From an uncultured Collinsella sp. (lineage in GTDB: Bacteria > Actinomycetota > Coriobacteriia > Coriobacteriales > Coriobacteriaceae): 64,000 bases of DNA. The stretch spans positions 10,688 through 74,687 of the forward strand of contig CAAEBN010000017.1 in NCBI GenBank assembly GCA_900754075.1, written 5' to 3'. The position numbers and the translations under genes are program-made. The notes beneath the pieces were generated by a model. That model did no database searches and was not told the DNA's origin. It worked only from the letters and a program-made list of their open reading frames with translations. Positions 52,797 to 60,177 of the stretch are shown here, piece by piece (position 1 is the first letter of the stretch; the number at the start of each line of letters is the position of its first letter).

Positions 52797-55445
52797 CTAG
52801 CAGACGGCGTAATCCTGAGGCTCACGGCCGTAGTAGGCGTCCAGGTAGAGCTCCTTGATCTCGCTCATGAGCGGGTAGCGCGGGTTAGCGCCGGTGCACT
52901 GGTCGTTGAATGCCTGCTCGGTCATCTCGTCGAGGGTGTCGAGGAAGTACTGCTCGTCAACACCGTAGTCGGCGATGGTCTTCTTGACGCCGATGAAGTC
53001 CTTGAGCTCCTCGAGCTTCGTGATGAAGTTCTCGAAGACCTCCTTGTCGTCCTTGCCCTCGATGCCGCAGTACTTGGCCATCTCGGCGTAGTTGTGCAGC
53101 GCGTTGGGGTAAGGATACTGGGAGAAGGTGCCCATCTTGACGGGAGCCTCGGCGGCGTTGTAGCGCATGACGCGGGTCAGGATGACGGCGTTTGCGAGAC
53201 CGTGGGGCAGGTGATGGAAAGCGCCGAGCTTGTGGGCCATGGAGTGGTTGAGGCCCAGGAAGGCGTTGGCGAAGGCCATACCGGCCATGCAGGAGGCGTT
53301 GTGCATCTCTTCGCGGGCATGCGGGTCCTTGGCACCGTTCGTGAAGCTGGAGGGCAGGTTCTCGAAGACGAGCTTGGCAGCACGCTCGGAGAGGCCCTTG
53401 GTGTAGTCGGAAGCCATGATGGAGACGTAGGACTCGATGGCGTGGGTCATGACGTCGATGCCGGAGGCAGCGGTCAGGCCGCGCGGGGCGGTCATGCAGT
53501 TGTCGGCGTCGACGATGGCCATGTTGGGGAGCAGCGCGTAGTCGGCGAGCGGCCACTTGATGCCGGTCTCCTTGTCGGTGATGATGGCGAACGGCGTGCA
53601 CTCGGAGCCGGTACCCGAAGAGGTCGGGACGGCGACGAAGTAGGCCTTCTTGCCCATCTCGGGGAAGGTGAAGATACGCTTGCGGATGTCCATGAAGTCC
53701 ATGGCCATGTCCTCAAACTTGCACTCGGGGTGCTCGTACATCATCCACATGATCTTGCCGGCGTCCATAGCGGAGCCACCGCCGACGGCGATGATGACGT
53801 CCGGCTCAAAGAGAGCCATCTGCTTGGCGCCGCGACGTGCGCACTGCAGCGACGGATCGGGCTCGACGTCGTAGAAGCAGTCGTGGGCGATGCCCATCTC
53901 GTCGAGCTTGGCCTCGATGGCGCGGGTGTTGCCATTCTTGAAGAGGAACTGGTCGGTGACGATGAAGGCGCGCTTCTTGCCCATGACGTTGCCCAGCTCG
54001 TCGAGGGCGACGGGCGTGGAACCCTTCTTGAAGTAGACCTTCTCGGGAGCGCGGAACCACAGCATGTTCTCACGGCGCTCGGCCACAGTCTTAACGTTGA
54101 TCAAGTGCTTCACCCCAACGTTCTCGGAGACGGAGTTGCCGCCCCAGGAGCCGCAGCCCAGGGTCAGAGACGGCTTCATGCCAAAGTTGTACAGGTCACC
54201 GATGCCGCCGTGCGAGGACGGGGTGTTGATGACGATACGGCAGGCCTTCATGACGTGCTCGAACAGGCTGATCTTCTCGGCCTGGGCGGGGTGCACGTAC
54301 AGAGAGGCGGTGTGGCCCGGGCCACCGGCGAGCACCAGGTGCTCGGCCTTGTCGACGGCCTCCTGGAAGTCCTTGGCGTGGTACATGGCCAGGACCGGGG
54401 AGAGCTTCTCGTGGGAGAACTCCTCCTTGGCGGGGTCGGTGGAGGTGACCTCGGCGATCAGGATCTTGGTCTTGGCGGGAACCTCGATGCCGGCGAGCTC
54501 GGCGATCTTGGCGGCAGCCATGCCGGGGATGCGGTGATCGAGAGCGCCGTTCTTGAACATGGCGGCACGCAGGGCCTCCATCTCGGCACCCTGCTTGACG
54601 AAGTAGCAGCCGCGCTTCTGGAACTCGGCCTTGACCTGGTCGTAGATGCTGTCGATGACGGTCACGGACTGCTCGGAAGCGCAGATCATGCCGTTGTCGA
54701 AGGTCTTGGAGTGGATGATGGAGTTGACGGCGAGCAGCACGTCGGCGGTGTCGTCGATGACGACCGGGGTGTTACCGGCGCCAACGCCCAGGGCGGGCTT
54801 GCCCGAGGAGTAGGCGGCCTTGACCATACCCGGGCCACCGGTGGCGAGGATGATGTCAACGTCGCGCATGACCATGTTGGTCAGCTCAATGGAGGGGACA
54901 TCGACCCAGCCGATGATGCCCTCGGGGGCGCCGGCCTTGACGGCGGCGTCAAGCACGAGCTTGGCGGCGGCGATGGTGCACTTGGCGGCAGCCGGGTGCG
55001 GGGAGATGATGATGGCGTTGCGGGTCTTCAGGCAGATCAGCGTCTTGAAGATCGCGGTGGAGGTGGGGTTGGTCGTCGGGATGACGGCGCCCACGATGCC
55101 GATGGGCTCGGCGATCTTGGTGATGCCGTAAGCCTCGTCGCGCTCCAGAACGCCACAGGTCTTGGTGTTCTTGTAAGCGTTGTAGATGTACTCTGCGGCG
55201 TAGTGGTTCTTGATGACCTTGTCCTCAAGAACGCCGCGGCCGGTCTCCTCGATGGCCATCTTCGCCAACGGGATACGAGCCTTGTTGGCGGCCATGGCGG
55301 CTTCATAGAAGATCTTGTCGACCTGCTCCTGCGTGTACGTAGCAAAAAGCGCCTGGGCCTCTCGCATCTGAGCGAGCTTGGCCTCAAGCGCCTCTACGTT
55401 GTCCACAATTGCGGGAGTAGTGTTTTCCGGTGACTTTTTCACCAT
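52797..55445 (-). CDS. adhE: bifunctional acetaldehyde-CoA/alcohol dehydrogenase
   Basis: 882 aa; N-terminal ALDH domain and C-terminal iron-containing ADH domain with the typical AdhE linker. Confidence 0.95.
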   Translation of the reverse strand: MVKKSPENTTPAIVDNVEALEAKLAQMREAQALFATYTQEQVDKIFYEAAMAANKARIPLAKMAIEETGRGVLEDKVIKNHYAAEYIYNAYKNTKTCGVLERDEAYGITKIAEPIGIVGAVIPTTNPTSTAIFKTLICLKTRNAIIISPHPAAAKCTIAAAKLVLDAAVKAGAPEGIIGWVDVPSIELTNMVMRDVDIILATGGPGMVKAAYSSGKPALGVGAGNTPVVIDDTADVLLAVNSIIHSKTFDNGMICASEQSVTVIDSIYDQVKAEFQKRGCYFVKQGAEMEALRAAMFKNGALDHRIPGMAAAKIAELAGIEVPAKTKILIAEVTSTDPAKEEFSHEKLSPVLAMYHAKDFQEAVDKAEHLVLAGGPGHTASLYVHPAQAEKISLFEHVMKACRIVINTPSSHGGIGDLYNFGMKPSLTLGCGSWGGNSVSENVGVKHLINVKTVAERRENMLWFRAPEKVYFKKGSTPVALDELGNVMGKKRAFIVTDQFLFKNGNTRAIEAKLDEMGIAHDCFYDVEPDPSLQCARRGAKQMALFEPDVIIAVGGGSAMDAGKIMWMMYEHPECKFEDMAMDFMDIRKRIFTFPEMGKKAYFVAVPTSSGTGSECTPFAIITDKETGIKWPLADYALLPNMAIVDADNCMTAPRGLTAASGIDVMTHAIESYVSIMASDYTKGLSERAAKLVFENLPSSFTNGAKDPHAREEMHNASCMAGMAFANAFLGLNHSMAHKLGAFHHLPHGLANAVILTRVMRYNAAEAPVKMGTFSQYPYPNALHNYAEMAKYCGIEGKDDKEVFENFITKLEELKDFIGVKKTIADYGVDEQYFLDTLDEMTEQAFNDQCTGANPRYPLMSEIKELYLDAYYGREPQDYAVC

Positions 55446-55587
55446 TTGTGTCTCCTTGCGATCGGAGATTTACCCTACGCCTTGCATGATAGCAAGAAAT
55501 TATTCGGCGAACGGTAAGATTCCCGTAAAAGGCACACTAAAACGCTTCAACTAAATGAACCGTTTCAACTAATGCTGCATTGCTCCG

Positions 55588-56625
55588 CTCATTGGGGACA
55601 GACTTACATGAGTGCATTTACTCATTTGGGACAGACATTGTTTTGCCATTTTGCCGCTCTGGGCTTGTTATTACCGCTCATCGGATATAAATAGGTCACA
55701 GGCTCAGCATTTCGCGTTGCTTCTCTCCTTTTAGGCGTTGCCTGTACAGTTTCGGAAGGAGAGATTATGCCCCGATGCGCCCGCGCCGTTTCGATCACCG
55801 GCTATTACCATGTCTTTGACCGCGGTAACTCCAAACAGATTATTTTTTGAAGATGACTCCGACCGCTATCGCTTCTTATCGGATATCTCGGAGAGGTTCG
55901 TGCGCTATGAAGTGGCGGTGTTGGCTTGGTGCCTTATGGACAACCACTTTCATTTGATGGTTGATGACCCATATGACAACCTTTCAAAGGCGATGCAGTG
56001 CGCATTGACGGCATATGCTAAGTATTTCAATGGAAAAACGGGGAGAACGGGGCATCTGTTTGACAATCGCTATTCGCGGGTCGCGGTTGAGTCGGACACG
56101 CAGGCAGTGCAGCTGCTCGATTATATCCATCTCAATCCCGTAAAAGGCGCGCTTGACTCACTCGAAGCGTACCGTTGGTCAAGCTACAAGGCATATCAGT
56201 TGGGCTATGATCCCTTTGACATCTGTGATGCGGCCCCTATGCTCGATATTGTCGGAGGCTCCCGTCGCTATTGCGAGCATCTCAAGGAAGTTGCCGAGCG
56301 CATCTGGTCGGTGGAGGTCCTTCCACGCCGGCGGATTCCCGATGAGGAGGCCTTTTCCGTTGCGCGCGAAGTCCTGCCGAGCATAGATCCTGCGCTGCTC
56401 AAGGCTCTGCCACGCCCCGAACGCGATGCCTGTCTTCTGAGGCTCAGGCGGGCGCATCTCACGGTCAAGCAAATTGCCCGTATCACCGGTATCGGCGCTA
56501 CAAGCGTGACCAAGGCCACCATAGGCTGGAATGAGGCAGCGTGAGGCAGGGGCGAACCGCTGCCGGCACGCGTTATGTCTGTCACAAATGCGTGAAAACA
56601 CTCATGTAAGTCTGTCCCCAATGAG
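55588..56625 (+). mobile_element. IS200/IS605-RAYT-like element: HuH-Y1 transposase gene flanked by 27-bp perfect terminal inverted repeats (REPtron-like)
   Basis: CTCATTGGGGACAGACTTACATGAGTG at 55588-55614 is the exact reverse complement of 56599-56625. Imperfect inner subterminal repeats at 55622-55641 and 56574-56593 (CATTTGGGACAGACAT / ATGTCTGTCACAAATG). Encloses the transposase ORF. Confidence 0.8.
55767..56544 (+). pseudogene. tnpA: IS200-like HuH tyrosine (Y1) transposase with C-terminal HTH, disrupted by +1 T in a T6 homopolymer
   Basis: ATG 55767 (SD GGAAGGAGAG) opens MPRCARAVSITGYYHVFDRGNSKQIIF, the canonical Y1 N-terminus, then hits TGA at 55848. The family-conserved continuation (EDDSDRY…HFHLMV…LDYIHLNPV…) is in the +1 frame (ORF-track 55738..56544). 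A T5 tract instead of T6 at 55843-55848 would restore a 259-aa ORF. Confidence 0.75.
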
Positions 56626-56628
56626 TGC

Positions 56629-56657
56629 AAAAAAGCGCCCTCCACATGAGAGGACGC
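56629..56657 (-). terminator. intrinsic terminator after rpmB (minus strand)
   Basis: On the - strand: GCGTCCTC-TCATGTG-GAGGGCGC followed by TTTTTT. Lies 4 nt from the IS right end. Confidence 0.7.
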
Positions 56658-56729
56658 CTTTGGTAAGTTCTATGTGAACGCGAGGTCTTTGGCCCGGAGA
56701 GTCCGAGGTACTTGTTGGTAAGACCTTAT

Positions 56730-56918
56730 TTAGGAGCGCGCAACCTTGCCGGACTTGAGGCAGGTGGAGCAAACGTTCATCTTGCGACGGTGACCATCGA
56801 CGACGACGTAGACGCGCTGGATGTTGGGGCGGAACTTACGGTTGGTGACGCGGTGAGAGTGGCTGATGGAGCGACCGGCAACGGGGTGCTTACCGCAAAC
56901 TTCGCAAACTTTGGACAT
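56730..56918 (-). CDS. rpmB: 50S ribosomal protein L28
   Basis: MSKVCEVCGKHPVAGRSISHSHRVTNRKFRPNIQRVYVVVDGHRRKMNVCSTCLKSGKVARS. ATG 56918..56916 follows AAGGAGGG; the ORF-track start at 56990 is an extension. Confidence 0.95.
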   Translation of the reverse strand: MSKVCEVCGKHPVAGRSISHSHRVTNRKFRPNIQRVYVVVDGHRRKMNVCSTCLKSGKVARS

Positions 56919-57269
56919 AACTGACCCTCCTTGGGCGACAAACGAACATGTCGCGTTAACAAACAAGCCTGAACTATAGCACAGAAGCATGTCTCTGTGC
57001 GCAATCTACACAGAGATATTCCTCTTTTGGCGATAGTGCCCACGCCACGGCCCTGGACGTAGATCCGATTTGCGTGCGGCAGAGGGGATTATGCCAGCTC
57101 GCAACAAGGTTTTCAAGCGCGTCCCACAAATATATATAGGTTTATGGAGCGATTGGCTCCGTTTACGGATTGACTAGTATTTATGCTCGCAATTGAGCCC
57201 GAGGTTGGCTACACTATGCCTTGACCATTAAAGGGGTACGAGATACCCACATGGAATTACATAGCTGTC

Positions 57270-57335
57270 AATGAGCAGTACTTCCTGTGGGTGTCTGGTT
57301 CCGCTTTGAGCGGTCGGGCATCTATTTTTTTGACT
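57270..57335 (+). promoter_or_regulatory. putative PyrR-responsive attenuator in pyr operon leader (hairpin plus T7 tract)
   Basis: UUCCUGUGGGUG (loose match to the PyrR box UCCNGNGAGG), then hairpin CCGC-TTTGA-GCGG and TTTTTTT at 57325-57331, ~40 nt upstream of pyrR. Confidence 0.4.
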
Positions 57336-57358
57336 GTGTCAGCAGTCAAGACATGTGA

Positions 57359-58887
<1,529 letters not shown>

Positions 58888-58904
<17 letters not shown>

Positions 58905-60177
58905 GAATGCCCACGTCGTCGATCCGTCCGTCGAGCTTGACGGTGTCGTTGACGTCCTGATCGACGGCGACAAGATCGCCGAGGTCGGCGAGAACCTCGC
59001 CGCCGAGGGAGCCGAGGTCCGCGACCTTTCCGGTAAGTACCTCGTCCCTGGTCTGGTGGACATGCACGTCCACCTGCGCGAGCCCGGCTACGAGGTCAAA
59101 GAGGACATCGAGAGCGGCACCCGCGCAGCTGCCAAGGGCGGCTTCACCGGCGTGTGCGCCATGCCCAACACCGACCCTGTTACCGATAACGGTACCGTCG
59201 TTGAGTTCGTCAAGTCCCGCGCTGCCGAGGTCGGCCACTGCCGCGTCTATCCTTCTGGCGCCATGACCCGCGGTCTTAAGGGCGAGGCTATGTCCGAGAT
59301 GGGCGATATGGTCGCTCACGGCGCCGTCGCCTTCACCGACGACGGTCGCGGCGTGCAGGGTGCAGGCATGCTCCGTCGTTGCATGGACTACGGCAAGATG
59401 TTCGGCAAGGTCTTTATGAGCCATTGCCAGGACGAGGACCTGGTCGGTCACGGCCAGATCAACGAGGGCAAGGTCTCTACCCGTCTGGCCCTCGAGGGCT
59501 GGCCGGCGGCGGGCGAGGAGCTGCAGATCGCCCGCGATATCGAGATCGCCAAGTTGACCGGTGCCAAGCTGCACATCCAGCACATCTCCACTGCGCATGG
59601 CCTGGAGCTCGTGCGTGCCGGTAAGGCAGCTGGCGTGCAGGTCACCTGCGAGGCTACCCCGCACCACATGTTCCTGACCGAGAACGACCTGGACGAGACC
59701 TACAACACCTCGCTCAAGGTCAACCCGCCGCTGCGTACCGATGAAGACGCCGAGGCTATCCGTCAGGGCGTCATCGACGGCACCGTCGACGTCATCGTCA
59801 CCGACCACGCTCCCCACACTCCGTGGGAGAAGGCTCGTGAGTTCGAGCTTGCGCCCTTCGGCATGATCGGCCTCGAGACCTCGCTGTCGCTCGTGCTCAC
59901 CGAGCTGGTCAACACGGGCAAGATGGGCATGGGTCGCATGGTCGAGCTCATGGCCATCAAGCCGCGCGAGATCCTGGGTCTGGACCAGGTTCAGGTCAAG
60001 GCGGGCTCCGTTGCCGACCTGACCGTGTTCGACGCGTCCGCCACCTGGACGGTTGGCGAGGACGGCTACGAGTCGCGCGCCGAGAACTCCGGTTTTGCCG
60101 GCCGCACGCTCACCGGTCGTGCCACCGATGTGTTTGTCGGCGGTAAGCAGACGCTTGCCGACGGCTGCATCTGCTAG
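58888..60177 (+). CDS. pyrC: dihydroorotase
   Basis: Metal-binding DMHVHLREPG and overall amidohydrolase DHOase sequence. ATG 58888 follows GGAGGTG. Confidence 0.95.

Follow-up and report, generated by a model that had tools for sequence, protein, structure and literature searches.

We identified, in the adhE-rpmB interval of a Collinsella (C. aerofaciens group) chromosome, a transposase gene that is broken by one additional T. The best explanation, to which we assign a probability of about three in four, is a recent and ordinary pseudogenising frameshift at a fixed locus that is prone to decay. The DNA analyzed is a stretch of 64 kb, referred to below as the window. The broken gene codes for a tyrosine transposase of the TIR-associated HUH/Y1 type (TIRYT; TnpA-Y1 subclass 2.1), and the adhE-rpmB interval in the window is a TIRtron of ~1.06 kb, consisting of a single-copy transposase gene bracketed by inverted repeats (TIRs) of 62 nt.

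The gene begins at an ATG (55767-55769) that is preceded by a strong Shine-Dalgarno region, GGAAGGAGAG (55754-55763, + strand), which was read from the sequence and is conserved in orthologues. Translation of the window in frame 0 gives MPRCARAVSITGYYHVFDRGNSKQIIF followed by a premature TGA (55848-55850), so that the N-terminal fragment (55767-55850, + strand) comprises 27 codons. The remainder of the transposase, 231 codons and a stop, lies in the +1 frame (55849-56544, + strand); it reads EDDSDRYRF...NHFHLMV...YIHLNPV... from 55849, ends at TGA 56542-56544, and was assigned by translation and by its match to Pfam Y1_Tnp. At the junction is a run of six T (T6; 55843-55848, + strand) where orthologues have five (T5), and together with 55849-55850 this run forms U_UUU_UGA. 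When one T is deleted from T6, a protein of 258 amino acids is restored. The sequence-only reading had placed an N-terminus in frame 0 from ATG 55767 to TGA 55848 and its continuation, EDDSDRYRF..., in the +1 frame, and had predicted that removal of one T yields the family junction ...KQIIFEDDSD.... The coordinates of both parts were confirmed by translation, and the predicted junction is the one found in all 80 best orthologous loci (see below).

The repaired protein matched Pfam Y1_Tnp (PF01797) with 32.9 bits (gathering score 23) over residues 13-121, a segment that includes the junction, in support of the claim that a Y1 transposase has been broken by one extra T. The N-terminal fragment encodes strand beta1 of the HUH core. 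The +1 part encodes the HuH motif N59-H60-F-H62 (H60, 55945-55947; H62, 55951-55953), the tyrosine motif Y119-IHL-N123-P124 with the single catalytic tyrosine on helix alphaD (Tyr119, 56122-56124, inside YIHLNP) and the C-terminal helical, HTH-like domain. Residues N59, H60, Y119, N123, and P124 are invariant in an alignment of 54 homologous sequences. Taken together, the Pfam match that spans the junction, the uniform junction in homologues and the T5 run in orthologues indicate a real one-base insertion and not a chance pair of open reading frames.

A sequence search of the PDB with the transposase returned nothing relevant, and the structural relatives came from a fold search. For the latter we used an AlphaFold2 model of an orthologue (P0002; pLDDT 89.9), in which beta1 corresponds to residues 13-20 and residues 192-257 form a confident helical bundle. 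The best PDB match was 4ER8, a RAYT (Foldseek E 1e-6, target TM-score 0.71), followed by 2XO6, 2A6M, and 2F4F, with structures of ISDra2, IS608 and IS200 TnpA among the matches. The C-terminal HTH was recognized at sub-threshold level only (Pfam Sigma70_r4_2, E 0.08; NCBIfam sigma-factor models, E 0.005). The top NCBIfam match was REP_Tyr_transpos (NF047646); its score of 54.5 bits is below the curated equivalog cut-off of 80, and the protein was therefore not assigned to the canonical RAYTs. An identity as IS200/IS605 was rejected as well, on the basis of the YIHLNP motif, the length of 258 amino acids and the presence of one copy at a fixed locus. The initial description as a canonical Y1 transposase thus holds for the Y1 family, but the gene is not of the classical IS200 kind; it is a TIRYT (TnpA-Y1 subclass 2.1) gene that is present in one copy and flanked by TIRs.

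In the left TIR (55577-55638), CATTGGGGACAGAC is present twice in direct orientation, at 55590-55603 and at 55623-55636, and both copies include a motif of the GGGGWSAS type. In the right TIR (56575-56636) the outer copy (56610-56623) is intact and the inner copy (56577-56590) is degenerate, with two mismatches. The arms are imperfect: over their 62 nt they show 84% complementarity. Two motifs, GGGGACAG or GGGACAG, are found in each. The CATTGGGGACAGAC motif occurs four times in the 64-kb window, against 0.29 occurrences expected, and all four lie inside the two arms; no copies of the TIR repeat were found outside both arms in the 64-kb window. The outer boundary of the element was defined by comparison with a contig that carries a divergent allele (L167), whose homology to the window stops at 55574 and restarts at 56652. 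When the DNA of the TIR ends was folded, the hairpins were weak and mostly non-significant (z-scores -0.3 to -2.9), and a description of these ends as REP-like palindromes was rejected for this reason. More distant relatives from other Coriobacteriia, at 45-56% identity (L167, L170, L173, and L174) have TIRs of 34-106 nt with GGGGAC motifs. A terminator-like hairpin of rpmB with a T tail (56638-56652, - strand) lies within 2 nt of the right TIR, which places the element directly against the 3' end of rpmB.

Two further observations were made on the composition and assembly of such elements. Third-position GC content (GC3) is 0.61 in the transposase gene (55735-56544) vs. 0.90 in adhE (52797-55469) and 0.80 in pyrR (57359-57955), and the codon usage of the transposase gene is atypical for the host genome despite its fixed, apparently vertically inherited locus. 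Four Logan contigs of 945-1026 bp (L169, L172, L173, and L175) have both ends inside their own TIRs. We rejected these TIR-bounded contigs of ~1 kb as evidence for multi-copy mobility, since their ends are probably places where the unitig broke because the inverted repeat exceeds the assembler's k-mer.

A search of 5.8 billion proteins identified 1968 relatives of the transposase, and the full-length homologues of 258 amino acids (88-96% identity) all read ...GNSKQIIFEDDSD... at the junction. A locus scan with one genome per species gave at least 546 loci, the best 80 of which were compared in detail. These best 80 loci are nearly all labelled Collinsella or Coriobacteriaceae, and each is from a different assembly. 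Every one of the 80 copies is intact and reads ATH ATT TTT GAA (T5), encoding ...KQIIFEDDSD...; the tract of 5 nt, invariant among the intact copies at these best 80 loci, is the ancestral length. Ten further copies beyond those 80 have T5 or T4C, bringing the copies without T6 to 90. A junction in homologues that differs from frame 0 before position 55848 would have spoken against the insertion; the 90 copies align to frame 0 and have T5 or T4C there.

The same loci show that the position of the gene is fixed. Flanking adhE, rpmB, and pyrR were present in 70 of the best 80 loci; the other 10 were cut by a contig end, and all flanks that could be reached matched. The window has one copy of the transposase gene, and all of the best 80 loci represent the adhE-rpmB locus. 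Among the intact copies dN/dS was 0.078 at a mean dS of 0.31 (2999 pairs from the best 80 intact orthologues), from which we conclude that the intact gene is maintained by strong purifying selection.

One contig has a very divergent TIRtron allele (L167:2760-3907; protein P0049) at the same site, which corresponds to 55574-56652 of the window. The protein is 56% identical to that of the window and the DNA ~65% identical over part of the gene, whereas the flanks are 95% identical on the adhE side and 88% on the rpmB-pyrR side, and the homology is lost exactly at the outer margins of the TIRs. Two readings are suggested by this pattern, exchange of the entire cassette and a long-standing balanced polymorphism.

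To place the T6 allele among these copies, both its exact recurrence and its pattern were searched for. The 244-amino-acid product that starts at an ATG in the frameshifted ORF (MSLTAV...) had an exact match in the Logan assembly of ERR414387. The contig concerned (L091) is 100% identical to positions 52810-59544 of the window (6.7 kb), T6 included, and its sample may be the window's own. The 268-amino-acid product of the ORF that starts at a TTG gave no exact match in the look-up. In the protein search with the out-of-frame N-terminus no cluster representative covered the out-of-frame part (maximum coverage 89%), a result to be read with the fact that clusters at 90% would absorb T6 proteins.

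When metagenome contigs were scanned for the pattern of the T6 junction, 55 stretches were returned, among which only L137 (VOFK01001545.1) is a true homologue with an insertion at the junction. A second stretch (L134) was rejected as a T6 allele, being a distant relative (30% identity) with the pattern elsewhere, and the remaining stretches are chance matches. Identity between the L137 and window copies is 90.9%, but L137 shares 95.2% with an intact copy (L079), and the window copy shares 97.7% with another (L004). Within 10 nt on either side of the T run the two T6 copies also differ, with CAA vs. CAG upstream and GAT TCT vs. GAC TCC downstream. The different intact copies that they resemble and the different adjacent SNPs indicate that the same additional T arose independently in the two copies. 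T6 is therefore present in two lineages, that of the window, which shares its sequence with L091, and that of L137, vs. T5 or T4C in 90 copies.

Apart from the extra T both T6 copies are intact. With the T removed, the window copy has a dN/dS of 0.086 against the others and just one residue of its own (H47Y), which argues for a recent lesion. A second short T run (55745-55753), upstream of the Shine-Dalgarno region, reads CAG-TTTCGG in the window vs. TTTTTG or TTTTG in relatives (L081, L086, and L089), and this length variation between strains indicates that small homopolymer indels occur naturally in the element. The suggestion that the tract is slippage-prone applies as far as a mutational warm spot, given the independent additional T in L137; it does not hold in any stronger sense.

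The state of the locus in other strains was determined by sampling through identical neighbouring proteins (AdhE, PyrR, and L28), which is unbiased as to the transposase and yielded 29 loci. The full intact element was found in seven of these, whereas 18 have only remnants of 260-530 bp and four are partial or rearranged. In most of the 18 remnants the two TIR ends are preserved, with a fragment of the gene between them that has internal deletions and many stops. Point lesions were found as well: a Q24* lesion in L177, with a protein cluster (P0010) of 420 members; an E48* lesion in L176, which carries T5 and is the window copy's nearest relative at the protein level; C-terminal frameshifts in P0007, P0008, and P0011; and truncations in P0014 and P0015. 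The locus is therefore prone to decay, having been inactivated recurrently and independently by frameshift, nonsense mutation and internal deletion.

Among the strains with remnants, L082-L085, L087, L088, L148, L150, L156, L157, and L162-L164 have MITE-like remnants of 500-530 bp between adhE and rpmB, in which both outer TIR ends are kept, with ~240 bp of transposase sequence between them that is stop-ridden and has internal deletions; some of these strains have an AdhE identical to that of the window. Even shorter remnants are present in L090, L153, L154, L161, L165, and L166. In L152 the adhE-rpmB region (~1269 bp) contains an IS200-type TnpA of 152 amino acids with HVHVLL and YIREQ motifs, encoded on the opposite strand and adjoining the right TIR of a TIRtron remnant. 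In L151 an IS3-type (rve) transposase gene (L151:1961-2686) lies upstream of rpmB, adhE is not found within 3.5 kb, and the locus is rearranged.

The sequence-only reading had offered a sequencing error, a genuine pseudogenisation or a slippage-prone, possibly phase-variable tract as causes. Pseudogenisation is the best supported of these, given the presence of the allele in a second assembly and the many independent inactivating lesions across strains. Replication slippage, as the presumed cause, would have lengthened the T5 run at codons 26-27 (ATT TTT) by one T. Ribosomes would then start at the Shine-Dalgarno/ATG, make a peptide of 27 residues and terminate at the new UGA. This would leave 231 codons out of frame, including those for the HuH motif, the catalytic tyrosine and the HTH-like domain, with no in-frame start or Shine-Dalgarno sequence before Met57, and strand beta1 (residues 13-20) would be separated from the remainder of the fold. 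With beta1 severed in this way the gene is expected to be functionally dead or nearly so. Reinitiation does not provide a way around the lesion: the first start codon in the transposase frame after the UGA is that of Met57 (55936), and translation from there would yield a protein devoid of beta1, alphaA, and beta2. Most simply, the T6 allele of the window is read as a null allele. As one of many independent loss events it would be an ordinary young pseudogene and not the sign of a new mechanism.

It is unlikely that the genome has in truth T5 and an intact gene, with the extra T being a consensus error in a homopolymer. The change does concern a single base in such a run, and the repaired ORF, with its one unique residue and its dN/dS of 0.086, is indistinguishable from the selected orthologues. 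Many of the related metagenome contigs are of low coverage, going by their names. Against an error stands the separately built Logan assembly with T6, identical over 6.7 kb, even though the ERR414387 contig may stem from the sample of the window and thus may not be independent. Moreover, a run of 6 nt is short for a systematic consensus error, and the rest of the window is dense with long ORFs and shows no widespread frameshifts, as judged from a crude GC3-based ORF map that was used only to exclude these. Real lesions are also common in this gene and include nonsense codons, which are impossible as homopolymer errors.

Leaky or switchable expression of the T6 allele, either by low-level +1 slippage of tRNA-Phe at U_UUU_UGA, by slippage of RNA polymerase or by a reversible T5/T6 ON/OFF switch, is in our view quite unlikely. 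Transposases need little protein, which counts in favour of leaky expression, and the slippage routes would restore the exact wild-type ...IIF-EDD... protein. At T6 a slippery codon is followed by a stop that is slow in the A site (AUU UUU UGA A), the strong Shine-Dalgarno region brings ribosomes to the shift site, and the same additional T was gained twice independently, both times in an ORF that is otherwise intact. Since the +1 frame offers tRNA-Phe a perfect match for re-pairing, the next codon (GAA) is that of the native Glu28 and UUU UGA is listed among the +1 slippery patterns (FSDB table; PMC3500957), some leakiness is mechanistically plausible, and the loss of function may thus be incomplete. 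Against this, the sequence upstream of the shift site, ACUCCAAACAGAUUAU, has no GGAGG-like element that could serve as a Shine-Dalgarno-like stimulator, and the stop is in a UGA-A context, where prfB has the weak UGA-C. None of 90 other copies has T6, and other strains have lost the gene through irreversible changes (nonsense mutations and deletions), a pattern in keeping with loss and not with regulation. Known contingency loci and tracts for transcriptional slippage are far longer than 5-6 nt. The proposed phase variation is likewise disfavoured by this short tract and by the distribution of T6 (two lineages) and T5 or T4C (90 copies). Without a stimulator and without conservation, there is no support for programmed recoding or for phase variation, and we infer that meaningful recoding is absent.

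A stronger version of the same idea, that the change from T5 to T6 has throttled the gene rather than abolished its function, is very unlikely. Expression of a few per cent would then be retained through slippage at U_UUU_UGA, the change might be revertible, and its recurrence would reflect selection on a domesticated HUH endonuclease. Finally, a programmed +1 frameshift that evolved as a normal, prfB-like autoregulatory feature of the transposase gene is effectively refuted and extremely improbable: the site has the appropriate shape, a slippery codon followed by an in-frame UGA, but is not conserved among orthologues, as full-length homologues from 36% to 96% identity all have a single ORF and all 80 best orthologous loci have T5, and it lacks a stimulatory element.

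For annotation, a recent pseudogenising frameshift means that the transposase should be marked as a pseudogene and not as two ORFs, and the frameshift itself matters little. In its context it is of modest interest, as a TIRtron of the C. aerofaciens group that is found at one fixed site, is under purifying selection and has yet been destroyed repeatedly. The very divergent allele at the exact same site in at least one strain is part of the interest of this population pattern. A comparison of natural knock-outs with intact strains, both of which occur in a common human gut species, could be used to seek the function of TIRYT / subclass 2.1 transposases.

The programmed +1 frameshift of prfB (RF2) takes place at CUU_UGA_C, in which UGA-C is a weak stop context. 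The T6 site resembles it in having a P-site codon that can re-pair in the +1 frame (UUU to UUU) followed by an in-frame UGA, and differs in the missing upstream stimulator, in UGA-A instead of UGA-C and in a site that is not conserved in orthologues.

With the IS200/IS605 TnpA proteins (subclass 1.1; IS608 and ISDra2) the transposase shares the HUH/Y1 fold, the PF01797 match and the structural matches. It differs from them in having Y...NP and not Y...Q and in its length of 258 amino acids vs. ~150, and the element has no tnpB, no subterminal-hairpin architecture and a single copy at a fixed locus. The E. coli RAYT (TnpA-REP; 4ER8) is the top structural match and has the Y...NP tyrosine motif as well, and as in a REPtron the gene is single-copy, vertically inherited and has inverted cognate repeats on both sides. 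In contrast to a REPtron, the flanks in the window are 62-nt TIRs and not short GC-rich REP palindromes; in addition, the protein is ~90 residues longer at the C-terminus than a RAYT and its NF047646 score is under the cut-off.

The closest correspondence is to the TIRYTs. In the excerpted text of Quentin et al. (2018; PMC6006769), subclass 2.1 proteins have NH[YF]H (or NHVH) and Y[IV]HLNP (or YIELNP) motifs, a median length of 238 amino acids and a C-terminal HTH (Bac_DnaA_C, HTH_23 or HTH_28-like), are of low copy number and are without REPs; Table 1 of the same source equates the subclass with RAYT Group 1 of Bertels et al. The excerpt of Di Nocera et al. (2013; PMC3733652) describes a TIRtron as a TIRYT gene with TIRs, many of which carry GGGGWSAS. 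The window copy departs from this description in being frameshifted, in having F-D after GHL (GHLFDNRY) vs. the W[EQ]/FQ listed for subclass 2.1 in the excerpted text, in a C-terminal HTH that matches Pfam only below threshold and in having no dispersed TIR family in the 64-kb window. Collinsella (Coriobacteriia) is not among the examples given in the excerpts of the two sources (PMC3733652 and PMC6006769). The agreement extends to both motifs, NHFH fitting NH[YF]H and YIHLNP fitting Y[IV]HLNP, to the protein of 258 amino acids compared with the median of 238 and to the helical C-terminal extension, which may be HTH-like. The gene is of low copy number, chromosomal and without tnpB, and it lies between long TIRs rather than REP hairpins, with GGGGACAG fitting the published GGGGWSAS motif.
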